DNA of 64,000 nucleotides, from NCBI GenBank assembly GCA_963752475.1, contig CAVVYR010000031.1, positions 1-64,000 of the forward strand. The letters run 5' to 3'. A program made the translations under genes and the position numbers. This document shows, piece by piece, positions 1 to 20,472 of this stretch; the stretch's first letter is position 1, and the number at the start of each line of letters is the position of its first letter. The notes under the pieces are model-generated. The model did no database searches and was not told the origin of the DNA. It saw nothing but the letters and a program-made list of their open reading frames with translations. This DNA is from an uncultured Chloroflexia bacterium. Lineage in GTDB: Bacteria > Chloroflexota > Limnocylindria > Limnocylindrales > CSP1-4.

Positions 1-394
1 CCGACCGTCTCGCTCGAACGTGGGGTCCAGCGGACCGAGGGTCTGCGATGGAAGTTCCTGGCCAACGCCTCCGACCCTCGCGTGGACGGCACGCTCTCGA
101 TGCTGGGTGAGACGCGATACCAGTTCCCCGGCTCCGTCACCATCACCTCCGGTCCGGTGGAACTGGTGAACGACGATGGCCGCTGGTCCGGGGAGTGGGG
201 GTGGTGGCGAACGCGAACGCACGATGGGCTGGAAGGTCCTCGGGTTCCTTGAGGGCGAGGGCGGATACGACGGACTCGCGTACCTCATCCACGTCGAGCA
301 GGACCTGTACGACACGAACGAGCTCGAGACCCATGGGGTCATCTACGTAGGCGATATCCCAGGCACGACGGACGAGGAGCCCCTCGCCGAGTAA
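1..394 (+). CDS. Secreted-protein family member (5'-truncated by window, frameshift near 200)
   Basis: Frame 1 gives SDPRVDGT...VNDDGRWSGEW; frame 2 continues GEGGYDGL...GVIYVGDIP...AE*. Same motifs as the paralogs at 2206, 3134 and 23536. Confidence 0.75.
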
Positions 395-400
395 CCCCAT

Positions 401-674
401 TGTGAGACTGGTGTCCTCCCCATCGCGGGGGCCCAGACTGGCGGCGACAGTGGACAGGCATGACCCGTAATCCCACTGGCTCTCGCAGCATGGCTTCGGG
501 ATGCCCTCGCGGGGATCTGTCTGCCCGTTCGCTGTCGACGCCGGCCTGGGACGCCGAGGCGTTGGCCTGATCAGAAGCCTGTCCACCCCGCAGGGGTGTG
601 ACCCATCACAGTCCTGCCAGCCCGGATGTCATGGCCCAGCCCGACGCCGACCACGGTCACCACACCGTCTCACA
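401..674 (+). ncRNA. Putative IS110 bridge RNA (target-binding and donor-binding loops)
   Basis: Closing stem 401-414/662-674. Two stem-loops with internal loops carry GTAATCCCA (467-475) plus CGCGG (508-512), matching the target, and AGAAGC (573-578) plus TCACA (606-610), matching the donor junction. Confidence 0.7.
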
Positions 675-685
675 GGAGGGCAACC

Positions 686-1736
686 ATGACCATGCTCGCA
701 GAGCGGATCGACGCCGTCATCGGGGTCGACACGCACAAGGCCTCGCACACCGCCGCGGTCGTGACACCGACCGGCGGTGCCACCGCTCACCTGACGGTGC
801 CCTCGGACGCCGTCGGCGCCAAGCGCGTCCTGGCCTTCGCTCGCCGTCACGCCCCTGCCCGACGGGTCTGGGCGATCGAGGGCACGGGCAGCTTCGGTGC
901 CGGGCTCACGACCTATCTGCTCGAGCAGGGCGAGTGGGTCGTCGAGATCGACCGCCCCAGGCGACCGGCCCGCCGCAACGGCGCCAAGAGCGACGAGCTC
1001 GACGCGATCCGCGCTGCCCGCGAGGCGCTCTCGCGCGAGCACCTCGCGCAGCCACGGCGTCGGGGCAGCCGCGAGGCGCTGCGCGTGCTGCTCGTGACAC
1101 GCGAGGGCTGCGGTGGTCGAGCGGACACGGGCGGTCTCCGCGCTCCAGGCGCTCGTCGTCAATGCGCCCGAGCAGCTCCGCGATCGGCTGCGCCACCTGG
1201 GTACCCGCGAGCTGGTCCTCCGGTGCGCGCGGCTGCGCAGCGGTCCCACACGGTCGCTCGAGCACCGCGCGACGATCGCGGCACTGCGCTCCACAGCGCG
1301 GCGGGCCCTCGTCTGCGAGGCCGAGGCGACCGACCTGGAGTCGGCGCTCGAGGACATCGTGAAGCAGGAGCGACCCGAGCTCCTCGCCGAGCCCGGCGTC
1401 GGGGTCATCACCGCAGCGCCCATCCTCAACGCCTGGTCCCATGCCGGACGCATCCGCTCCGAGGCGGCCTTCGCGATGCTCGCGGGCGTGGCGCCCATCC
1501 CCGCCTCATCGGGCCAGACCGTCCGTCACCGACTCAACCGTGCCGGCGACCGTCAGCTGAACCGGGCCCTCCACACCATCGTCCTCTCGCGGCTCCAGCA
1601 CGATGCCGAGACCCGCGCCTATGCCGCGCGTCGGCGGGCAGAGGGCCGGAGCGACCGAGAGATCAGGCGTTGCCTCAAGCGCTTCGTCGCACGGCGGCTC
1701 TTCCGGCTCCTGGAGGGCTCCGCCCAAGCGGCTTGA
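686..1736 (+). CDS. IS110 family transposase/recombinase (frameshift near 1110)
   Basis: IGVDTHK, AIEGTGSFG and KSDELDA (DEDD RuvC-like domain); C-terminal PIPASSG...HRLNRAGDRQLNRAL; RBS GGAGG at 675-679. Confidence 0.92.
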
Positions 1737-1738: not shown

Positions 1739-2115
1739 GACATAGAAGCATCCGCGCCGCCTCGGCTGCCTGCGGCGCTGAAGAAAGTCGGAGGATGTTC
1801 GCGGCGACCAACCAGTCCCCGCGCTCAGCGCCGCAAGCCAGATCATCCACGCCGTCGTTGCCCCGACACCATCGACCACTGGTCGTCTGCGGTCGGGGAT
1901 CGCGTCGGGCGGTTCCTGCACGCTGACAACAGCGCCGCGAGCCAGATCCGGCACAGGGATAGACACCGACACGACGGTGCATGTCCTCCTGCGTGACCGT
2001 GAGCGGCACCCACCCGGACATCACGACGGTGCCGCGAAACAACGCCACTACCGCACGCGCATCCATCACCCTCGAAGGCCCAGTGGCCTTGTCGTCAGGC
2101 GGACAATGGTTGCCA

Positions 2116-2188
2116 GCGGGAGGCGATGAGGCACGGCCCACACCCTGGCCGCCTGGACCGCGCCGAGCCACTGGCGGACCCGGCCCGC
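2116..2188 (+). ncRNA. c-di-GMP-II-like riboswitch (variant), copy 1
   Basis: P1 GCGGG/CCCGC, kink-turn GGC-GAU-GA...GA-GCC, stem GGCACGG/CCGCGCC, pseudoknot CGCC/GGCG. Lies just upstream of the RBS; -10-like GACAAT at 2102-2107. Confidence 0.7.
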
Positions 2189-2205
2189 GCATGGGAGGGG
2201 TTGTC

Positions 2206-2754
2206 ATGCGTACGCTGCGACTGTCGCTGGTCGGGACGGTCATGTTGGCGCTGTTCGGCGGGCTCGGGGGCGTGGCAGCAGGGCAGGACCTCGAGGATGC
2301 GCCCGTATGGGTGAAGCTCCTCACCCGGGGAGATCTGCGGCTCGAGGGGATGGCCGTCATCGCCCAGCCAGGGTTGGGTTTCACGCAGTCGATCCGCGAC
2401 CTCCCGGGCGCCTGGGACAGCACCTACAGCGATCCCCGCCTGGACGGGACCCAGCACCTGATCCACAACGAGGACTGCTCCGCAGACGGCATCTGCGTCG
2501 CCTGGGGGGCCGTGGACATCGAGGGTCCCGAGGGCACGACGTGGACCCGCTGGTACCACGAGATCGACGATGACGACACCGACGGGGTGGACGACGCGAG
2601 CTGGCACTTCGTCCTCACCGGCACAGGACCCAACGAGGGGCTCACGGCCATCCTGTTCTCGCTGGGCGTGTGGGAGCAGTTCCCCAACGAATACGGGGTC
2701 ATCTACCGGGGCGACCCGCCGCCTGCCTCGGAGGAGCTGTTGACCGCCGAGTAA
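2206..2754 (+). CDS. Secreted protein, MRTLRL signal-peptide family
   Basis: RBS GGGAGGGG, signal peptide MRTLRLSLVGTVMLALFGGLGGVAAG/QD, SDPRLDGT and GTGPNEGL motifs. Confidence 0.85.
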   Translation: MRTLRLSLVGTVMLALFGGLGGVAAGQDLEDAPVWVKLLTRGDLRLEGMAVIAQPGLGFTQSIRDLPGAWDSTYSDPRLDGTQHLIHNEDCSADGICVAWGAVDIEGPEGTTWTRWYHEIDDDDTDGVDDASWHFVLTGTGPNEGLTAILFSLGVWEQFPNEYGVIYRGDPPPASEELLTAE

Positions 2755-2782
2755 CCCCATCCCGCCGCCTCGGCTGCCTGCG
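2749..2782 (+). repeat. Conserved 3' motif GAGTRACCCCATC...CGCCGCCTCGGCTGCC
   Basis: Also at 389-400 plus 1752-1774 (split by the IS), 3656-3685 and 19713-19747 (minus). Always includes the stop codon. Confidence 0.85.
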
Positions 2783-3041
2783 ATGGTCGCGGCCCTGCTT
2801 GGCACCTCGCCGGCCAGGGCCACGCCCATCGCCGCGAACCGGATCCACATACCCGTAGACACCGACACGCTGGACGCCTGCCCGCGTTGGGCCTGGGCGG
2901 ACACCATGACGGTGTGCTGGAACAGCGCCCTCGGACCTGAGGACAGCGGCCTCTGACCCTGAGAACAGCAGCCCGACTGCACGCGCATCTACCACCGTCG
3001 AACGCCCAGTGGCCTTGTCGCGAGGCGGACAATGGTTCGTA

Positions 3042-3113
3042 GCGGGAGGCCTGACGCGCGGCCCCAGCAGTGGCCGCCTGGACCGCGCCGAGCCACTGGC
3101 GAACCCGACCCGC
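3042..3113 (+). ncRNA. c-di-GMP-II-like riboswitch (variant), copy 2
   Basis: Homologous to 2116-2188, with stem GCGCGG/CCGCGC, a different loop, and 3' GGCGAACCCGACCCGC. Confidence 0.7.
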
Positions 3114-3133
3114 GCATGTTCAGGGGGAAAGTC

Positions 3134-3661
3134 ATGCGTACGTTGCGGCTGTCCCTGGCAGGGACGGTCATCCTGGCGCTGCTCGGTGGACTGGGTGGCG
3201 CGGCGCTGGCGCAGGACGAAGCGAGCGAGCCGACGACACCAGCGTTCTTCGAGCGGGTCGAAGAGACAGGGGACGACGACACTGGGGCATCGTGCACCAC
3301 GGACCCGCGCTTCAGCGGGACGATGGTGGAAGATGAGCCCGCCATCTTCAGCGAGACACCGGTCGCGCCCGAAGCACCTGGCATCCACGCGATCGGCCAC
3401 GGCTATGACCACGTCGGGTGGGGGCTGTCACGCCTCGAGAACGACGAGGGCGCCTGGCAGGGCTGGCACGGCGGCTTCTCGTGGATGAACGGGGCCCCGT
3501 GGCACGAGCAGATGTGGTTCGTCGGCGAGGGCGCGTACGACGGGTTGAGTGCCGTCGTCGCCAGTCGCTGCGAGCAACTCCCCTGCGGGGAGGGCGACAC
3601 GTTCCTCTACGGAGTCATCTACGAGGGCGACGTGCCACCGATCGGGCCGCCCGTCGAGTGA
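3134..3661 (+). CDS. Secreted protein, MRTLRL signal-peptide family
   Basis: MRTLRLSLAGTVILALLGGLGGAALA/QDE; TDPRFSGT, ENDEGAWQGW, GEGAYDGL and GVIYEGD motifs. Confidence 0.85.
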   Translation: MRTLRLSLAGTVILALLGGLGGAALAQDEASEPTTPAFFERVEETGDDDTGASCTTDPRFSGTMVEDEPAIFSETPVAPEAPGIHAIGHGYDHVGWGLSRLENDEGAWQGWHGGFSWMNGAPWHEQMWFVGEGAYDGLSAVVASRCEQLPCGEGDTFLYGVIYEGDVPPIGPPVE

Positions 3662-3684
3662 CCCCATCGCGCCGCCTCGGCTGC

Positions 3685-4033: not shown

Positions 4034-4573
4034 GTGAACGGGTCACACGACTACAGGGCGCTCGAACGCGAGTTCGTCAGCTCCCAGATCAGCCTGCGTG
4101 AGCTATGTCGCAAGCACGGCATCAGCGCCCACTCTCTCGTCACCGTCCAGGCCAAGAAGGGCAAGTGGGCCGAGAAGCGCGAGCAGTACGAGGCCAAGGA
4201 GTCGGAGGCCTTCATGTCGCGCTACGCGGCCCGACAGGCTGACCGTCTGGCCGACCTCCACGACAAGATCCTCGACGCCATCGAAGAGGCCCTCGACGAG
4301 TTCTGCGAAGACATGGCGGCGACCGAGAAGAGGCGCATCGACGGTGAGTGGGTAGAGGTGCCCGCCATGCGGCTGATGCCGAAGGATGTCGCCATCCTGC
4401 TCGACCGGCTCGAGGTGCTGTTCGACACGCCGTCCCGCATCAGCGAAGGCCGCGACCTAACCGCCAGGTCGGAGCTGCCCATCGACGCCCTCAACCGGAT
4501 CGTGGAGCTGACACGGGGGAGGGCAGCGCCACCGACATCAACGCTGCCGCGAACGCGGCGGCTGGACGACTGA
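4034..4573 (+). CDS. Phage terminase-small-subunit-like HTH protein
   Basis: N-terminal ISLRELCRKHGIS...AKKGKWAEKR resembles the TerS-type HTH, followed by a helical region; RBS GGAG. Recognised by eye only. Confidence 0.55.
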   Translation: MNGSHDYRALEREFVSSQISLRELCRKHGISAHSLVTVQAKKGKWAEKREQYEAKESEAFMSRYAARQADRLADLHDKILDAIEEALDEFCEDMAATEKRRIDGEWVEVPAMRLMPKDVAILLDRLEVLFDTPSRISEGRDLTARSELPIDALNRIVELTRGRAAPPTSTLPRTRRLDD

Positions 4574-4738
4574 GCAACCCGGAGGTTGGTGGACTCGGCA
4601 GACACCCGCTCCCGCTCCACGCACGCCGCCGGTCCGTTCGGCCCTTGACCCGCTGAGCGGGCTGTTGACGATAGGTCGCGACTCACGGAGTTGGCCGTGG
4701 CGTGCCTAGGCGTCACCCACCCGTCGCAGACGGAGAGC

Positions 4739-12615: not shown

Positions 12616-14922
12616 GTGCGACGTCTCGCAGTCATCGTCATGTGCATGGCGCTCGCAGGAATCGCGCCTGCGGCGGCCGGAGCGGCGGGCAGGACAGTGA
12701 TGGTCACGAGTCCGGAGGACGCCGGTCCCGGCACACTCAGGAGCGCGCTGGAGGACCAGCGGCCATTCGACATCATCACCTTCGACCCCGCGGTCTTCTC
12801 GCCCGAAAAACGGGGTCCGCATCCGCCTCCAGAGCCCGCTGCCCGGGCTCGGTGCCGGGGACGTGACCATCGACGGGGCGGACGCCCGGGTCGTGCTCGA
12901 CGGCCGCGACATCACCGAGGACTGGACCCACGGGCTACAGCTGACGTCCGACGACAACACCATCCAGGGCCTGGAGTGTCACGCTTTCCCGGCGTGGGCA
13001 TCGCGATCTCCGAGGGCAGCGGCAACCTGATCGGCGGCGACCGGAGTATCGGTGCCGGGCCCTCCGGGCAGGGCAACGTGGTGACGCGCAACTCCCACAT
13101 GGGCATCGGTCTCTGGAACGGTGCGTCGGAGAACGAGGTCCGGGGCAACTTGGTCGGGGTCGGCCCGACCGGCAAGCAGGGCCAGGGCAACGGCTACGGT
13201 ATCGCCATCAACGAGGGCGCTCATCACAACATCGTCGGTCCAGGGAACACCATCGCGCGCAACCACGGCGCGGCGTCGGTGTCGGCGACGCGCGACCCTC
13301 GGCAATACGATCACCCGTAACAGCATCCTTCACAACGGTGGTCAGGGCATCCGGTGGGCAGAGGCGCACGACGCCGGTCCCGCCGACGATCTCGTCTCAT
13401 GACCTCGAAGCTGGGAGGCTGGCCGGCGCGACATGTCCCGGCTGCAGGGTCGAGGTGTACTCCGGACGCAGGCACCAGGGCGCGATCTTCGAGGGCACCA
13501 CGACGGCCGATGAGCAGGGACATTCGCCTCGCAGGGCAGGGACTCGTTCAGGGGACCCCACCTGACGGCCACGACCACCGAGCCCCGCGGCGGCACGAGC
13601 CAGTTCTCGTTGCAGACGACTGGTTCAAAGGGCGGGCGTCTGGCCATCAGCGAGGGAACGACTTTGGCGGTCACCCAATGCGGCCCAGGTGTCGAGCGAG
13701 CTCGACGACAATCGTATGGGCGGGGAGTTCGACGGCTTCGGGGTCCCGGTCGAGACCTACGACTAGGAGGTCTATCCTCGAGGCGTCAAGCGCGTCGCGT
13801 ATCATCACGGGCATCGAGCCCGAGCTGGGTGACTGGGAGCGGTCGGAGTTCGAGGTCCTCCCCGGCTCGGAGGCGGTCATCGACCGGCTGGTCGACAATG
13901 GCGTCGAGATCACGTACGTCGCTCATGTTCTGGGACAAGGCGACGTGGCCCGGCGGCGAGGGGGCACCCTGCGCGAGGTTCAGGACCAAGGGCGAGATCA
14001 AGCGATACCTCGAGTTCGTGCGGCTTCATCGTCGAGTCACTTCAAGGGCCGTGTCGACCGCTACGAGATCTGGGACGAGCCCGACATCGAAGGCTACTGC
14101 CCCAAGTACATCCGAGTCCCGGACTACGCCCGGCTGGTGAAGCGGGTCGCACCGGTGATCCGGGCCGAGCATCCCGAAGCCAAGATCGTCGTCGGTGGCG
14201 TCTCGAACACGGTTACCCTGGTACCCGAACGTGGCTGTTCGGCATCCTCGAGACCGACATCATGCCTCTCGTGGACGTGGTCCGTGGCATCCCATGTACG
14301 GGAGTCACCAGCGTACAAGCTCGAGAAGGCCTACTACGAGAACTACCCCTCGATGTGAAGCGGATCAAAGGAGCGGCCGAGGCCAACGGGTTCGCGGCGA
14401 GTACCAGGCCGACGACATCGGCTGGTCGACCCCGGGGAAGACCATGGCGCGGCCACGCCCTGGGTCTACACTGCCGGCGGTCGCGCCAAGTACTACGGAC
14501 GCGAGCATCCTACTGCACCTGGGCATGGACATCGGGCGTGGGGGCACCCGACGACAAGCCGGTGATCCGTCAAGCTGGCGACGCTGATGGCCGGTGCTGA
14601 GCCGGCGGACCTGCCGGTGCAGATCCGCAGCAAGGCCAAGGATGTCGTCAGCTACACGTTCTCCACGCCCGATGGCGGCTACCTGGTCGCGCTCTGGACC
14701 AACGGCAAGGCCGCCGAGGTCGACCGCGGCACGAGGGCCACGGTCACGATCTCCGGGGTCGCCACCGAGCTGGCTACGGGCATCGACGTGCTTCACGGCT
14801 ACGAGCAGCCACTGATCGTCGAGGAGGTGGAGAAGGGCATGGTCATCCGGAATCTGCTCATCAGGGACTACCCGACCCTCCTCCGAGTGGGCGCTACCGA
14901 GACCGAGGCCGTACGGGGGTAG
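12616..14922 (+). CDS. Secreted right-handed beta-helix plus glycoside-hydrolase-like (GH5/GH39-type) protein, heavily frameshifted
   Basis: VTSPEDAGPGTLRSAL, GNLIGG...GNVV, NTIARN beta-helix repeats; FKGRVDRYEIWDEPD...PEAKIVVGG TIM-barrel motif. Confidence 0.6.
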
Positions 14923-15102: not shown

Positions 15103-15915
15103 ATGGTTCGGGCCCGCGAGATCGCACCTGACGTCTTCTGCCTTGGCCCGCTCGGTCGCACGCAGACCAACGTCTACTTCGTTCGAGCGGGTGACTCATG
15201 GGTGCTGATCGATGCGGGTTGGGCGAGCGATCTGTCCCGCATCGAGGAGTCCGCCGCCGACCTCGTAGGTCATGACACCGTCCCGGCCGCCATCGTCCTC
15301 ACCCACGACCATCCGGATCACGCGGGCACTGCACGCATCCTCGCCGAGCGTTGGGCATGTCGGGTGTTCGTCCACCCTGCCGAGCTGGCCATCGCCGGTG
15401 GCAGCTTCACTGCGATGTGGCGGCATGCCGGACCGCTCGACCGCTACGTCATCCTGCCGGCCATCAGTGCCCTCGGCCGCCGCCGCCGCGACACCATGCT
15501 CGAACGGAACAGCCTGGCCCCTGTCATCGAGGCGCTCGGGCCCGATGGCGCGATCCCGTACCTTCCCGGCTGGCGATGGGTACATACTCCCGGCCACACG
15601 CCTGGTCACGTCTCGTTCCTGCGACCCGACGACGGGGTACTCATCACCGGCGATGCACTCGTCACACTCCAAGTCAACACGCTCGCCGGGATGGTGCGAG
15701 GACGCGGGGGTCTGTCCGGTCCGCCCTGGTACACGACCGCCGATCCCGCGGCAGCCCGTGCATCGCTCAGGACGATCGCCGGCCTCGAGCCACGTGTCCT
15801 CGCCACCGGGCATGGACACCCTCTGACCGGCCCGGACACCGCCGACCGTATCCGTCTACTTCGCCGACGCACAATGAGTGGGTCGCCACGATGTGGTGAT
15901 AGTGGGCGTGGGTAG
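15103..15915 (+). CDS. MBL-fold metallo-hydrolase
   Basis: THDHPDH, HTPGHTPGH, ITGD and TGHG motifs. Confidence 0.9.
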   Translation: MVRAREIAPDVFCLGPLGRTQTNVYFVRAGDSWVLIDAGWASDLSRIEESAADLVGHDTVPAAIVLTHDHPDHAGTARILAERWACRVFVHPAELAIAGGSFTAMWRHAGPLDRYVILPAISALGRRRRDTMLERNSLAPVIEALGPDGAIPYLPGWRWVHTPGHTPGHVSFLRPDDGVLITGDALVTLQVNTLAGMVRGRGGLSGPPWYTTADPAAARASLRTIAGLEPRVLATGHGHPLTGPDTADRIRLLRRRTMSGSPRCGDSGRG

Positions 15916-16302: not shown

Positions 16303-17130
16303 TCAGCCCTCCACGATGCGTTTCGTGGATACCCGCTCGAGGAATCCACGTACAAGCTGCGCCGTCTCCTCCGGCTGTTCGATGGCGACCGCGTGGCCGG
16401 CGCCGGCGATCTCTGCGTACTCTCCATCCGTGATGCGCAGCACCATCGCCTGGACCTGGTCCGGGCTGAACGACTTGTCTTCGGTTCCTGCAATCGCGAG
16501 AACAGGAAGTCTCACGTCCGCTAGCTGATCGGTCACGTTCCCGGCGCGGAGGACGATACCCTTCAGCGTCCGGACTGCACCGGCGCGATCGATACCACAG
16601 ATGTGCTGCCGCCAGCGTTCCCGCTCTGACGCGTGCTCCTCACCGGTCAGGAAGTCATCGGAGAAGAGCGCCTTCATCGCCGTGTCCGCTAGTGGCGCCA
16701 TGCCCCTGAAGCGCGCGATCGCGCCCATGACCAGGTAGCCCGGGACTTTGGCCCAACCCTCTCCCTTGGAGTTGGAGTTGAGCAGGACGAGCGACCGAAG
16801 CAACTCGGGCCGTCGCAACGCGAGCCGCAATCCCACCCAGCCACCCATCGAGGTACCGATGTAGTGGCATGGCGCTAGGCCCAGCCGTTCGATGAGCGCA
16901 GCCGCATCGTCAGTCAGCGCGTCGACGCTGTAGCCGTCGCTCGTCACCTCGCTCGCGCCCTGGCCGCGCCAGTCGAAGGCCGCGCAGCGGTAGTCATCCT
17001 CGAGACTGGCCGCTAGCCCATCGAAGGCGTGGTGGTCGAAGAGGAACCCGTGCGTCATCAACGCCGACTCCGCCCCGGACCCTCGCTCCTCGAACGCGAG
17101 CAACGCGCCGTTCACCGTGATCGTCGCCAT
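16303..17130 (-). CDS. Alpha/beta hydrolase
   Basis: HG, DWRGQG, GTSMGG nucleophile elbow, GTED, AGH. Confidence 0.9.
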   Translation of the reverse strand: MATITVNGALLAFEERGSGAESALMTHGFLFDHHAFDGLAASLEDDYRCAAFDWRGQGASEVTSDGYSVDALTDDAAALIERLGLAPCHYIGTSMGGWVGLRLALRRPELLRSLVLLNSNSKGEGWAKVPGYLVMGAIARFRGMAPLADTAMKALFSDDFLTGEEHASERERWRQHICGIDRAGAVRTLKGIVLRAGNVTDQLADVRLPVLAIAGTEDKSFSPDQVQAMVLRITDGEYAEIAGAGHAVAIEQPEETAQLVRGFLERVSTKRIVEG

Positions 17131-17248
17131 CGCCGCTTCCCCCGTGCTTCGATGTCGGTACGTGGGCGGTCCTGCGGAGGCACCCGGGAGTATCGTAGCG
17201 CTGCAACATGCGGCCCAACACGATCTGAGTCGAAATGGAGGGCGAGCG

Positions 17249-18079
17249 ATGGGGGAGTTGCGAGGCGCGAACGTCCTGCTGACCGGTGCATCCAGAGGCA
17301 TCGGAGTGTTCATCGCCAGGGCATGCGCATTCCGGGGTGCCAACCTGGCGATCACCGACCAGGATGCCCACGCACTCGGGAAGCTGGCTGCAAGGCTGGC
17401 CGGGACGGGCACCACGGTCGTGGCCTTGCCGGCCGACCTGCGCGACCCGGGGTCACTCGACGAGCTGGTCCCGCAGGCCGAGGCAGCGCTCGGCCCGGTC
17501 GACATCCTGGTCAACAACGCCGCGGTCGCCCGGCTGGCCCCCTTCATCGAGTTCGACGACGCTGAGCTCCGGGCGATGGTCGAGGTCAACCTCATGGCAC
17601 CGATGATCCTCACGCGTCGTCTGCTCCCGGGCATGATCGAGCGAGGTCGCGGGCACGTAGTGACCGTGTCTTCGCTCGAGGGCAGGAAGGGCATCCCCTT
17701 CGACGCCGCCTACTCCGGCACGAAGGCCGCGCTCGTCAGTTGGATGGAAGCCATCCATGTCGAGCTCGAGGCGACGGGCGTCAGGACCAGCATCGTCCTG
17801 CCCGGCTATGTCAGCGAGGCCGGGATCTTCGCGGACCGTGGCGCCACGGTGCCGCGACTGATGGGCGCCTGCCCTGCCTCCGATGTCGCGAGAGCGGTCG
17901 TGCGTGCGATCGAGCGAGAGAGCCAAGAGGTGATCGTCACCCCGCGACCGGTTCGGCCGCTCCTTGCCCTCAACACCATGTCACCAGTACTGGGCGACCG
18001 GATCCTCAGGATCCTGGGAGTGGTGAGGGTGCAGCGCTGGATCCTCGAGCACCAGCGAGCTGGCGGAGCAGAGCGGTGA
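17249..18079 (+). CDS. SDR family oxidoreductase
   Basis: TGASRGIG, NNA, YSGTK. Confidence 0.92.
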   Translation: MGELRGANVLLTGASRGIGVFIARACAFRGANLAITDQDAHALGKLAARLAGTGTTVVALPADLRDPGSLDELVPQAEAALGPVDILVNNAAVARLAPFIEFDDAELRAMVEVNLMAPMILTRRLLPGMIERGRGHVVTVSSLEGRKGIPFDAAYSGTKAALVSWMEAIHVELEATGVRTSIVLPGYVSEAGIFADRGATVPRLMGACPASDVARAVVRAIERESQEVIVTPRPVRPLLALNTMSPVLGDRILRILGVVRVQRWILEHQRAGGAER

Positions 18080-18894
18080 GCGAGCTACGAGGTGCGAACG
18101 TCCTGTTGACCGGCGCCTCCAGAGGCATCGGGACGCACATCGCTCGAGCCCTGGCCTCGCGGGGCGCGAACCTGGCCCTCACGGCGCGGAACGCCGACGA
18201 ACTCGAACGGCAGGCTGCAAGCCTTGCCGCATACGGGGTCAGGGCCGTGGCGTTGCCGGCCGACCTGACCGACCACGCAGCGGCAGACGGGCTCGCGGCG
18301 CGCGCCGAAGCGGCGCTGGGTCCGATCGACATCCTGGTCAGCAACGCCGGCGCAGCGACGCTATCAAGGTTCTGGGAGCTCGATGAGGCCGACCTGCGGC
18401 GCATGGTCGACGTCAACTTCGTCGCCTCCATGCTTCTGACGCGCAGGCTGCTGCCGGGCATGCTCGATCGAGGCCGAGGACACCTGGTCGCGATCGCGTC
18501 CCTCAGCGGGAGGAAGGGCCTGCCCTTCGTTGCCGTCTACAGCGGTGCGAAAGGAGCGCTCATCAACTGGTTGGAGGCGCTCCATGCCGAGCTGGAGGGT
18601 ACGGGGGTCAAGACCAGCATCGTATTGCCCGGCTACGTCAGCGGAGCCGGCTTCTTCGCGGACCTCGACGCCCCGCCTCCACGCGTGCTGGGCGCGAGCC
18701 CTGTCGCGGACGTTGCGCGCGCCGTCGTGCGTGCGATCGAGTCGGAGCGACAGGAGGTGACCGTGACTCCGATGCCAATCCGACCCTTCCTCGCCCTCTG
18801 TGCGCTGTCCCCAGCCTGGGGTGACCGGGTCCCGAAGATGCTCGGGGTGATCGAGGCGCAGCGGTGGATGGCCGACCACCGGCAGACGGGCTGA
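18076..18894 (+). CDS. SDR family oxidoreductase (tandem paralog)
   Basis: GTGA overlap; TGASRGIG, SNAG, YSGAK. Confidence 0.92.
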   Translation: MSELRGANVLLTGASRGIGTHIARALASRGANLALTARNADELERQAASLAAYGVRAVALPADLTDHAAADGLAARAEAALGPIDILVSNAGAATLSRFWELDEADLRRMVDVNFVASMLLTRRLLPGMLDRGRGHLVAIASLSGRKGLPFVAVYSGAKGALINWLEALHAELEGTGVKTSIVLPGYVSGAGFFADLDAPPPRVLGASPVADVARAVVRAIESERQEVTVTPMPIRPFLALCALSPAWGDRVPKMLGVIEAQRWMADHRQTG

Positions 18895-19295: not shown

Positions 19296-19359
19296 CTCAG
19301 CGCGATCGCCTGGTAGGCCCGTCTCGGCGGCTCGCTGCTAGCGCCACTGTCAATGTGGC

Positions 19360-19693
19360 CGACAGGCTGACCGTCTGGCCGAGATCGATGACAAGGCCAT
19401 CGATGAGACCCTCGATGGGCTCTGCGCGGCCTGCGGGCGACGGAGAAGAGGTGCATCGACGGTGAGTGGTTAGAGGTGCCGGTCATGCGGCTCAAGCCCA
19501 AGGATGTCGCCATCCTCCTCGACCGGCTCCAGGTGCTATTCGAGCGACGCGACTCGGAATCAGCGAGGGCCGTTACCTCAGCGCCAGATCGGAGCTGCCC
19601 ATCGGCGCCCTGAACCAGATCGTGGAGCTGACGCAGGGGTGGACAGCACCACCGACAGCCCCGTTGCCGCGAACGCGACGGCTCGACGACTGA
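19360..19693 (+). pseudogene. 5'-truncated copy of the TerS-like gene at 4034-4573
   Basis: Clear DNA similarity from GACAGGCTGACCGTCTGGCCGA to ...SELPIGALNQIVELTQG...PRTRRLDD*. Confidence 0.85.
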
Positions 19694-19741
19694 GGCGGAC
19701 TCGCTCCGGCCTCGCAGGCAATCGAGCTGGCGCGGATGGGG

Positions 19742-20333
19742 TTACTCGAAGGCTCCAGCATGTCGGGCGTGATGGGCTGGCCGGCGACGATATCCATGGC
19801 CGCGACCCGGAACAGGACATCCCGACGGTCGGTGATGGCGTCGGTCGCCTCGTCAGCCGAGACGAACGCCCCGGTGAATTCGACGCGCTGCCCGGGCGCG
19901 GCGTCGAAGAGCGCGACCATCACCTTGACCGGGTCCTCCACGAGGTAAAAGGTGTGCTCCGCGTAGAAGTTGTAGCGCTCCGGGCGCATGTCCTCGCCCC
20001 ACACCTCGAACGAGAGCCGCTCACCGTCATAGTCCCAGTAGTAGGTCGCCGGAACCTTCGGCTCGCTCGGCCAGTCGAAGGTCATCTCGTATAGAGGTCC
20101 CCGTTGACCGCATACGTGCACGGCTGGGGGCTCCAGTTCTCGCCCCAGTGTTGGACACAGGTCCCGTCCGCGTTGAACTCGACCGCTTGGCCGGGGTACT
20201 CGTAGGCGACGAGCATCCCGGTCGGGAAGGTCATCGCTTCGGACTCTTCGTCCTGTGCCGCGGCCACCCCACCGAGTCCACCCCACAACGAGACGGTCAC
20301 CATGCAGGCCACCAGAAGTCGCAACGTACGCAT
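19742..20333 (-). CDS. Secreted protein with MRTLRL signal peptide and SAF-like C-terminal segment (frameshifted)
   Basis: MRTLRLLVACMVTVSLWGGLGGVAAA/QDE; C-terminal VAAMDIVAGQPITPDML; ends in the family 3' motif. Confidence 0.7.
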
Positions 20334-20354
20334 GAGGATCCCCCTTCGATACGG

Positions 20355-20428
20355 GCGGGCCGGGTTCGCCAATTGCTCGGCGCGGTCCTCAGCGGCGAAG
20401 GTTCGGGCCGTGTGTCATCGCCTCCCGC
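20355..20428 (-). ncRNA. c-di-GMP-II-like riboswitch (variant), copy 3, more degenerate
   Basis: Reverse complement reads GCGGGAGGCGATGACACACGG...CGCC...GGACCGCGCCGAGCAATTGGCGAACCCGGCCCGC; -10-like GAGAAT upstream. Confidence 0.6.
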
Positions 20429-20472
20429 TACGCCTATTCTCTCGCGGGCGTCCATCGGCCTCGACGCACGAC

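Follow-up and report, generated by a model that had tools for sequence, protein, structure and literature searches.

A variant class II c-di-GMP-type riboswitch, present in many copies ahead of genes for predicted secreted proteins, in an uncultured Limnocylindrales bacterium

Three leaders at the locus

The stretch of DNA analysed here, referred to throughout as the window, comprises positions 1 to 64,000 (64,000 nucleotides, nt) of contig CAVVYR010000031.1 in GenBank assembly GCA_963752475.1, from an uncultured Chloroflexia bacterium of the order Limnocylindrales (Chloroflexota). It carries three short RNA leaders, two on the forward and one on the reverse strand, each set between a -10-like box and the Shine-Dalgarno (SD) sequence of a gene for a putative secreted protein (Table 1). 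The three are genuine aptamers of the class II (c-di-GMP-II) riboswitch fold, the canonical form of which binds cyclic diguanylate (c-di-GMP), and they belong to a set of about 35 copies in the genome.

The three leaders are built alike. P1 consists of 5 base pairs (bp), GCGGG/CCCGC, and is followed after one unpaired A by a P2 of 3 bp, GGC/GCC in copies 1 and 2 and GGC/GCA in copy 3; the latter thus contains a G-A mismatch, and copy 3 is the weakest of the three. The internal loop has GA on both strands, in the manner of a kink-turn, and the P3 hairpin carries a variable loop in which CGCC is complementary to a GGCG of the 3' junction. The junction letters are GGAGGC in all three, with GAC-CCG in copy 1 and AAC-CCG in copies 2 and 3. 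Upstream, 7-8 nt separate the end of the GACAAT or GAGAAT box from GCGGG; downstream, a G-rich SD starts 5-11 nt past P1 and is followed by an ATG. Most of this had been proposed in an initial annotation made from the letters alone -- the positions of the leaders, the box 7-8 nt ahead of each, the helices, loop and pseudoknot, and the junctions GG-AG and (A/G)AC-CCG -- and all of it could be read directly from the sequence, with the pair counts given below supporting the individual parts.

In many leaders a further ATG stands 2-3 nt past P1, within GCATG (window 2191-2193 and 3116-3118, for example). It is in frame with the real start 5-6 codons on and has no SD of its own; the N-termini that begin there read MGGVVM..., MFRGKVM... 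and the like.

Table 1. Positions of the riboswitch leaders, their flanking signals, the genes behind them and other elements named in the text (positions are those of the window unless a contig or locus is given)
Feature	Position	Strand	Basis and remarks
Aptamer, copy 1	2110..2194 (P1 to P1, 2116-2188)	+	Rfam match, letters
-10-like box GACAAT, copy 1	2102..2107	+	sequence letters
SD GGGAGGGG, copy 1, 5 nt past P1	2193..2200	+	sequence letters
Gene 1, 182-amino-acid (aa) signal-peptide protein, main family	2206..2754	+	open reading frame (ORF), ATG at 2206; no Pfam family
Aptamer, copy 2	3036..3119 (P1 to P1, 3042-3113)	+	Rfam match, letters
-10-like box GACAAT, copy 2	3028..3033	+	sequence letters
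SD GGGGGA, copy 2	3123..3128	+	sequence letters
Gene 2, 175-aa signal-peptide protein, main family	3134..3661	+	ORF, ATG at 3134; predicted beta-barrel
Aptamer, copy 3	20350..20434 (P1 to P1, 20428-20355)	-	Rfam match, letters
-10-like box GAGAAT, copy 3	20436..20441	-	sequence letters
SD GGGGGA, copy 3	20339..20344	-	sequence letters
Gene 3a, 83-aa signal-peptide protein	20082..20333	-	ORF, ATG at 20333; no Pfam family
Gene 3b, 170-aa ORF	19573..20085	-	ATG overlaps 3a stop (ATGA)
Type-1 riboswitch of the window's genome	G000:C8:571463-571549	-	edge of large type-2 array
Type-1 copies in relatives	L051-L059, L063, L065, L031:3327-3414, L043:4332-4419
IS110-family transposase, directly upstream of copy 1	626-1733	+	split over two frames
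DEDD_Tnp_IS110	626-1132	+
Transposase_20	1113-1733	+

Matches to Rfam families and covariation

The whole window was compared by cmscan with 4227 Rfam families, the gathering scores serving as cut-off. Exactly three matches exceeded it, and they are the three leaders; scores of this size exclude chance (Table 2). The cut-off of RF03169 (c-di-GMP-II-GAG) is reached by all three copies and that of RF03170 (c-di-GMP-II-GCG) by copies 1 and 2, with copy 3 falling short at 43.3 bits.

Table 2. Scores of the three leaders against class II models in genome-wide scoring, best family found by cmscan, and nucleotides of the binding pocket (canonical numbering)
Item	Consensus nt 68-70	Cut-off (bits)	Copy 1	Copy 2	Copy 3
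Canonical, RF01786 (bits)	C A A	53.5	37.0	36.2	23.6
GCG, RF03170 (bits)	A G C (upper-case G at nt 69)	47.9	57.0	57.9	43.3
GAG, RF03169 (bits)	A G A	40	50.7	51.3	42.4
Best family (cmscan)			RF03170, 57.0 bits, E 1e-7	RF03170, 57.9 bits, E 6.1e-8	RF03169, 42.4 bits, E 6.4e-5
Letters at nt 68-70			G A C	A A C	A A C
Pocket			G14-C60, A61, G68, A69, C70, G73	G14-C60, A61, A68, A69, C70, G73	A68, A69, C70, G73

For the fold itself, the 36 best candidate copies of the window's genome were aligned, and a covariance model built from these yielded 106 further copies at 35 loci in 24 genomes of the same genus; the alignment of the 106 was fitted to that model, which favours structure. Standard pairs fill 88.5% of the cells in the 36 own copies and 90.4% in the 106, against 31-40% and 28-42%, respectively, when the 3' partners are slid by 1-3 columns. 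The observed covariation score was reached by none of 500 shuffles in either set, though the shuffle control overstates the case, the sequences being related; the slid-partner control is free of that weakness. Compensatory double changes occur in six of the eight P3 pairs among the own copies and in all eight among the 106, which also show them in P1 (2/5 pairs), P2 (1/3) and the pseudoknot (1/5). In the kink-turn-like loop of the 36 own copies the 5' GA is invariant, as is the A of the 3' GA, with its G kept in at least 90%. Four pseudoknot pairs, formed in 93-103 of 103-104 cells, are almost invariant G-C and hardly vary within the genus, so that they say little there; between families, the helix has been re-coded with its complementarity kept, from GCAC:GUGC in the canonical model to CGCC:GGCG in the variants and the window copies. 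At a fifth pair, between a loop nucleotide and nt 68, the 103 lettered cells hold CG in 28 and UA in 14, while 60 are unpaired.

The class II topology named in the initial annotation is thus upheld by matches to Rfam clan CL00127 together with covariation. The comparison that it had proposed, with the c-di-GMP-II, -GAG and -GCG models, gives a variant-family match for every copy and confirms its view of the leaders as non-canonical members, below the RF01786 cut-off and above those of the variant models (RF03169 in 3/3, RF03170 in 2/3); both class II matches and compensatory changes, the absence of which it had named as telling against it, were found.

Copy number in the window's genome

The assembly amounts to 4.25 Mb in 38 contigs with 68% G+C, and is 88.8% complete with 5.8% contamination. 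At E values up to 1, 33 of 39 matches to RF03170 and 34 of 40 to RF03169 in this genome exceed the respective cut-off, and one of 33 matches to RF01786 reaches 53.5 bits. The genome-wide count suggested in the initial annotation therefore extends the regulon far beyond three, to about 35 copies. Many stand in tandem units of riboswitch plus gene, of which contig C8 holds 13 (571-593 kb), and C32 and C14 four apiece. Copies 1 and 2 share 83% identity over the 87 nt that precede them, so the tandem duplication took in the promoter region as well. One copy at the end of a contig, C14:496-580, is identical to window copy 1 over 85 nt and has a nearly identical gene; it may stem from a recent duplication, or else the assembly holds a single locus in two places, and the genome's count may for that reason be one or two too high. 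A few copies appear to be decaying, among them C6:589520, at 27.9 bits, and the partial C8:581951.

A high copy number, the IS110-family transposase directly upstream of copy 1 and the contig-end duplicate of that copy are what might be expected if the leaders were a dispersed repeat or mobile element instead of a regulatory RNA. Their position speaks against it, since an ORF with an SD stands directly downstream on the same strand in 35 of the 36 own copies examined, and likewise in 93 parsed leaders of the wider collection. No inverted repeats of 60 nt or longer were found in window 1-24000, and the compensatory base-pair changes and the match to a curated riboswitch clan point the same way. 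Position and covariation effectively refute this explanation, which is left with only a very slight probability.

The binding pocket and its subtypes

In the canonical complex (PDB 3Q3Z) the pair A14-U60 is stacked against the backbone of the ligand. One guanine is recognised by the sugar edge of A69; A70 is intercalated between the two ligand bases, with its ribose touching the other guanine, which is read by G73, and A61 and A13 form the ceiling and floor (PMC13715770). The spacing of nt 60, 61, 69, 70 and 73 given there was recovered by counting from the 3' strand of P2. The canonical consensus printed by cmscan reads gGAggC ... GAGccAGUgGUGCAACCG, and nt 14 in it is a variable g paired to c.

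Relative to that consensus the window copies differ in having C for A70, A or G for C68, and the re-coded pseudoknot helix; on their letters, only A70 to C truly alters the pocket. The labels GAG and GCG presumably refer to nt 69, 70 and 73. The window copies, with A69 and C70 in 3/3, have neither the G69 of RF03170 nor the G69-A70 of RF03169, and so fit neither of the Rfam variant consensuses, both of which have G69 (how strictly G69 defines RF03170 is judged here from its consensus line). A consistent two-base change at ligand-contacting positions, resembling the GCG type, had been claimed in the initial annotation. The part concerning nt 70 stands. The part concerning nt 14 falls away, since a G there is already usual in the canonical model, whose own consensus pairs it with C60, and GG-AG is accordingly no hallmark of a variant; the likeness to the GCG type also fails at nt 69, where the copies keep the canonical A as against the G of the GCG consensus.

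Across the genus, 142 copies formed the base of the alignment, and a fixed parser read 108 of them as the prevailing type, here called type 2, which includes all three window copies and is marked by G14-C60, A69 and C70. (The parser required G14 and A61, so neither position is counted as a finding.) Among the 108, A69 is present in 100, C70 in 92 and A70 in 12, C71 and C72 in 106 each, and G73 in 103. The pocket columns are thus near-fixed in these copies, which come from 25 genomes, while the P3 stems vary. In the 36 own-genome copies A61 is invariant and nt 68-70 read AAC in 26, GAC in four, GAA in two, and CAC, AAA, AGC and GAT in one each. The GAG state, G69-A70, was met in 2-3 of the 142.

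A second kind, type 1, is strictly GCG in its pocket, with G69 and C70, an A at nt 14 and no nt 60. Fourteen of the 142 copies are of this type, a single one per genome, and it is the sole copy in the single-copy genomes fetched. All 14 precede a gene for a membrane protein of about 97 aa (one of them apparently frameshifted), and DUF5658 (PF18902) is the sole Pfam family in the 9/9 type-1 targets scanned, as a weak match that passes the curated cut-off in one. Types 1 and 2 coexist in the same genomes with non-overlapping target genes, and are physically linked in at least three: on contig C8 of the window's genome and at L031 and L043.

Two canonical switches from outside the genus may be set beside these. 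One, L208, from another Chloroflexota family, precedes a protein with a weak DUF5658 match below the curated cut-off; BLASTP gave no alignment between this protein and a type-1 target, and a DUF5658 link between canonical and type-1 targets is offered as a lead only. The other, L210:61-144, from the window's family and another genus, scores 65.3 bits with RF01786 and has the canonical pseudoknot letters, yet carries C70; the change from A70 to C is therefore not confined to the variant scaffold.

Distribution

The motif was found in 34 of 36 other sampled genomes of the same genus, with 1-47 matches each, and in none of 24 small genomes (1.0-1.4 Mb) of the sister family. In an even sample across the class it is present in 47 of 151 genomes (a tally that includes the unpublished G152 and G178, used for this count only), belonging to two of five families, mostly with 1-16 copies. 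A search of public species genomes for the exact type-2 3'-junction signature returned at least 135 stretches, mostly in metagenome-assembled genomes (MAGs) labelled Chloroflexota, Chloroflexia or Candidatus Limnocylindria/Limnocylindrales. Ten of these loci, seven from MAGs labelled as other groups and three from MAGs labelled Chloroflexota/Chloroflexi, were tested with the covariance model, and nine proved to be complete type-2 motifs; for the MAGs with other labels, real spread and mis-binning of short contigs cannot be told apart. Canonical RF01786 switches occur elsewhere in the phylum, in 42 of 151 genomes at E values up to 1e-5 (the unpublished G335 being included in that tally), 26 of them over the cut-off.

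Regulated genes

Twenty of the 35 targets in the window's genome fall into one BLAST cluster, the main family, with lengths of about 130-370 aa; one member of 64 aa appears truncated. Its members share the motifs DPR(L/F)SG, GxWxG and GEGAYEGL and a proline-rich C-terminus, and gene 1 clusters here with 19 other regulated ORFs. A Pfam scan of 23 targets found no family apart from two SRPBCC/polyketide-cyclase-like proteins and a weak DUF5658 match. Signal-peptide-like N-termini were called by a simple rule rather than a trained predictor (K or R in the first 10 residues, together with a hydrophobic run of at least 11) and are present in 31 of the 35 own targets and in 66 of 79 called targets of the relatives. 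The 13 exceptions among the latter include genes that recur from genome to genome -- six of SRPBCC type, two instances of one unnamed protein, and a methyltransferase-like gene that is also a target in the window's genome. The secreted and uncharacterised nature that the initial annotation gave to the targets is thus sustained, by this simple rule in the one respect and by the lack of a Pfam match for the main family in the other. Secreted and surface proteins are a typical output of c-di-GMP control.

For gene 2, 225 homologues were found at E up to 0.001, none of them with a name other than hypothetical. An AlphaFold2 model from a 36-sequence alignment, with a predicted local distance difference test (pLDDT) score of 81.4 and a predicted template-modelling (pTM) score of 0.70, has a helix at the N-terminus and an antiparallel sheet of ten strands. 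Foldseek found no match to this model in the PDB at E 0.001 or better, the best being 0.045; by VIA-align the best match is 2q03_B (Z 9.7, root-mean-square deviation 2.5 over 105 residues). VIA-align places two DUF3224 proteins, whose function is unknown, at the top (Z 9.7 and 8.6); barrels of the Diels-Alderase, allene-oxide-cyclase and dirigent kinds come next (Z 6.7-8.3). The model points to a small beta-barrel, a type in which small-molecule binding is frequent, this being a statement of fold class only.

Behind copy 3 lie two genes, 3a and 3b. Gene 3b has a weak match to the SAF domain (20.1 bits, below the cut-off of 21), and the same two-part layout is repeated at a paralogous locus on contig C28. 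A frameshift in the gene of copy 3 was considered and rejected, a two-ORF unit with overlapping ATGA being the better explanation.

Two further loci in the genome bring copies of the riboswitch close to genes of c-di-GMP metabolism. At C6:589520-592189 a GGDEF gene comes next, on the same strand, after the decayed copy of 27.9 bits and the gene for a secreted protein that this copy heads, and at C1:140450-150487 a copy with a GAA pocket lies about 3 kb from the gene of a degenerate GGDEF protein and 9 kb from an EAL gene.

Putative promoter, expression platform and proposed mechanism

Of 117 type-2 copies, 50 have a GA(G/C/T)AAT box at exactly the same distance, and 105 retain the A that precedes GCGGG. 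Judged from the letters, the box would be the -10 element of a promoter, with transcription starting at or very near the 5' end of the aptamer. The RNA evidence consists of assembled contigs of metatranscriptomic libraries, in which DNA carry-over is possible. Most of these contigs show the aptamer core of other copies, with unlike flanks; two lie on the coding parts, one of 195 nt with 0 differences (2283-2477) and one of 233 nt with 2 differences (3434-3666), and no start site could be read from any of them.

Farther upstream, 26-21 nt before GCGGG, a TGGACG (or TTGTCG) box is seen, as at window 20454-20449 (-); among the 117 type-2 copies TGGACG is exact and in register in 26 and TTGTCG in six. 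Standing 7 nt upstream of the -10-like box, it is too close to be a normal -35 element, and could be the site of a regulator.

The SD starts 2-14 nt past P1 in 87 of 93 parsed leaders. No terminator fits into this space, which leads to initiation of translation as the point of control; from this layout, control is probably translational. By comparison, the canonical switches examined in other Chloroflexota are followed after P1 by a GC stem and a U-run, resembling a terminator. Partners of the SD were sought in minimum-free-energy (MFE) folds of 35 leaders and in SD-aptamer duplexes of the 93. With a mean of -10.66 kcal/mol, the best duplex is no stronger than those formed by shuffled SD regions (-11.05); it involves the 5' side or loop of P3 in 55 leaders, the pseudoknot 5' strand or P3 3' side in 28, and the 3' junction or P1 3' strand in ten. 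According to one review, the ligand-bound state of canonical class II switches turns translation on (PMC7583470). As no specific anti-SD partner was found, the direction of switching rests on this analogy, by which the ligand would switch translation on here as well.

We propose the following sequence of events. The aptamer would bind a cyclic dinucleotide, most probably c-di-GMP supplied by GGDEF enzymes that the genome itself encodes, and binding would lock P1, the pseudoknot and the C-rich 3' junction into a compact fold. Without ligand, any of several C-rich strands could mask the G-rich SD; locking would free the SD 2-14 nt past P1 and so turn on translation of the gene downstream. The roughly 35 units would then form one regulon of mostly secreted proteins, its largest group being putative beta-barrels of about 180 aa.

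A leader that had kept the fold and lost the switching, serving as a constitutive 5' element (for mRNA stability or protein binding, for example) inherited along with a promoter cassette, would equally lack a specific anti-SD element. The spread of copies by tandem duplication together with the promoter region and the presence of decaying copies (C6:589520, C8:581951, and the P2 mismatch of window copy 3) would also suit it. Such a loss is improbable, however, given that the 108 copies, drawn from 25 genomes, are near-invariant in pocket and junction and show compensated variation in the stems, a pattern that implies selection on the binding site and not only on a hairpin; the aptamer also heads unrelated recurring genes (SRPBCC, methyltransferase-like).

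The probable ligand

On balance we lean towards a lineage-specific, type-2 form of the class II switch that most likely responds to c-di-GMP, turns translation on and governs a regulon of secreted proteins. As for the ligand taken by itself, c-di-GMP is thought rather more probable than all others together, and the change of A70 to C would then tune affinity and leave the ligand as it was. The bases that read the ligand, A69 and G73, are kept, which favours c-di-GMP, as does a set of targets made up mostly of predicted secreted proteins, such as c-di-GMP typically controls. Copies with A70 and with C70 alternate in one tandem array before paralogous genes -- on contig C32 the copy at 15619 (GAA) stands beside those at 14842, 14113 and 13369 (AAC) -- and this, together with the C70 of the canonical-scoring L210, argues for the same ligand as in the canonical class.

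The genome has the enzymes to make that ligand. Of its seven GGDEF domains, five combine an intact GG(D/E)EF with Asp, the canonical residue, at the position that sets base specificity; of the remaining two, one has Asn at that position and the other is a degenerate GDDEF. There are also three EAL genes and one DAC gene. Neither a SMODS cyclase nor a match to the c-di-GMP-I riboswitch RF01051 was found in this genome at its 88.8% completeness. Ser or Thr at the GGDEF specificity position marks the Hypr enzymes that make cyclic GMP-AMP (cGAMP), and none of the seven domains has either residue; with no SMODS cyclase and no such GGDEF domain, no source of cGAMP is evident.

Several observations weigh against a c-di-GMP switch of this kind. 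The intercalating A70, an upper-case letter in the canonical consensus, is C in 92 of 108 type-2 copies, and most type-2 copies have a C-A mismatch beside A69, where the fifth pseudoknot pair is open in 60 of 103 cells. None of the three window copies reaches the RF01786 cut-off. Type 2 and the strict-GCG type 1 share one genome, and coexisting pocket types could mean several ligands. As to the switching, no segment of the aptamer was a consistent partner of the SD in the 93 leaders, and the MFE folds of 35 leaders are heterogeneous, with no common alternative structure. Among the RNA-library contigs, one that belongs to a related copy extends upstream past the promoter-like box. Small pocket changes have, moreover, marked altered specificity in other riboswitch classes (PMC7266159).

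Some of these points would be accounted for if the A69/C70 pocket sensed another ligand, such as 3'3'-cGAMP, cyclic diadenylate (c-di-AMP), pGpG or an unknown relative, so that the regulon answered a signal different from that of canonical switches and from that of the type-1 switch in the same cell. Besides the replacement of a highly conserved adenine and the scores under the canonical cut-off, the coexistence of types 1 and 2, linked in at least three genomes and with non-overlapping targets, fits such a division. There is a precedent in c-di-GMP-I variants that sense c-AMP-GMP (PMC7266159), and in an engineered class II RNA the change from A-U to G-C at the equivalent of nt 14-60 shifted the affinity for 2'3'- versus 3'3'-cGAMP (PMC13715770). 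For c-di-AMP, the DAC gene offers a supply. Set against this are the retained ligand-base readers A69 and G73, the A70 and C70 versions serving paralogous genes in a single array, the want of an evident cGAMP source, and the frequent occurrence of G14-C60 in the canonical model itself. Altered specificity is accordingly possible and is held to be the less probable of the two. That A69/C70 constitutes a third natural specificity class beside GAG and GCG, reading a signal other than c-di-GMP, is rather unlikely. Were it so, one fold would read two or three nucleotide signals in these Chloroflexota, counting the strict-GCG switch before DUF5658 and the canonical switches of sister genera, and a single signal would have under its control a family of secreted beta-barrels driven by as many as about 47 leaders in one genome.

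Other features of the window

A direct repeat of about 340 nt, 71-90% identical, lies at window 4231-4574 and 19359-19694 (+). The first copy is the 3' part of a 179-aa ORF (4034-4573) with no Pfam family; the second is partial and lies antisense to the ORF that follows riboswitch copy 3, overlapping its 3' end. At window 17117-18894 (+) there are two tandem short-chain dehydrogenase paralogues, seen as direct repeats 827 nt apart with 70-73% identity; the first of them matches adh_short at 162.6 bits.

Significance and comparison with known systems

Rfam already records both the fold and its GAG and GCG variants, and any Rfam-based annotation would label these elements. In the literature searched, which did not extend to Weinberg et al. 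2017 (PNAS; said to be the defining paper of the c-di-GMP-II variants GAG and GCG), the names of these families occur only as entries in lists of Rfam models, in two papers each, and neither a report of a ligand for natural c-di-GMP-II variants nor a paper pairing Limnocylindria with riboswitches was found; the available part of a 2020 review of validated riboswitch variants does not mention those of c-di-GMP-II. As far as could be seen, judging without the Rfam seed alignments or that 2017 paper, four things appear to be undescribed: the predominance of the A69/C70 pocket throughout a lineage, the expansion to 35-47 leaders per genome, the coupling to a secreted beta-barrel family, and the presence in the same genomes of a strict-GCG switch ahead of a DUF5658-like gene.

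Four pocket states, A69-A70, A69-C70, G69-A70 and G69-C70, occur here on closely related scaffolds with clear gene associations, and with so many natural sequences in four states the role of the intercalating base and of nt 69 becomes directly testable. Counted per genome, a regulon of 35 leaders here, and of up to 47 in a relative, ranks with the largest that we know for any single riboswitch; a Geobacter species has roughly 30 copies of GEMM-I. The regulon would point to a large, uncharacterised set of secreted proteins as the output of a second messenger in uncultured soil and sediment Candidatus Limnocylindria. Should the ligand be plain c-di-GMP, the window type would be a lineage-specific flavour of a known riboswitch, unusually expanded.

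Of the known systems, the canonical c-di-GMP-II riboswitch (RF01786, PDB 3Q3Z) shares with the window type P1, P2, the GA/GA loop, P3 and the pseudoknot between P3 loop and 3' junction, as well as A13, A61, A69, C71, C72 and G73. It occurs in the same phylum, over the cut-off in 26 of 151 genomes, where it too precedes signal-peptide proteins. The window copies depart from it in C70 for A70, A or G68 for C68 and a CGCC:GGCG pseudoknot, and by a P1 of 5 bp with an SD-proximal platform where the canonical Chloroflexota examples are terminator-like. RF03170, the best model for copies 1 and 2, has the CGCC:GGCG pseudoknot and C70 in common with them; its consensus has G69, as against A69 in 3/3 window copies and 100/108 of type 2, and the strict GCG form in this genus is type 1. 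RF03169, the cut-off of which all three copies pass, agrees in scaffold and pseudoknot and differs in its consensus G69-A70 from the A69-C70 of the window.

Two more distant systems are instructive. The c-di-GMP-I riboswitches (GEMM-I and GEMM-Ib) resemble the present set in serving many disparate genes per genome and in having rare pocket variants (PMC7266159), though their fold is unrelated and RF01051 has no match in this genome. The engineered c-di-GMP-II-Bh (BhP1-5delC) has the same fold and a pocket that accepts other cyclic dinucleotides, and in it the change from A-U to G-C under the ligand backbone alters selectivity (PNAS 2026, PMC13715770); it is a laboratory construct that keeps the intercalating adenine, and the work on it does not concern natural RNAs with C70 such as those of the window.

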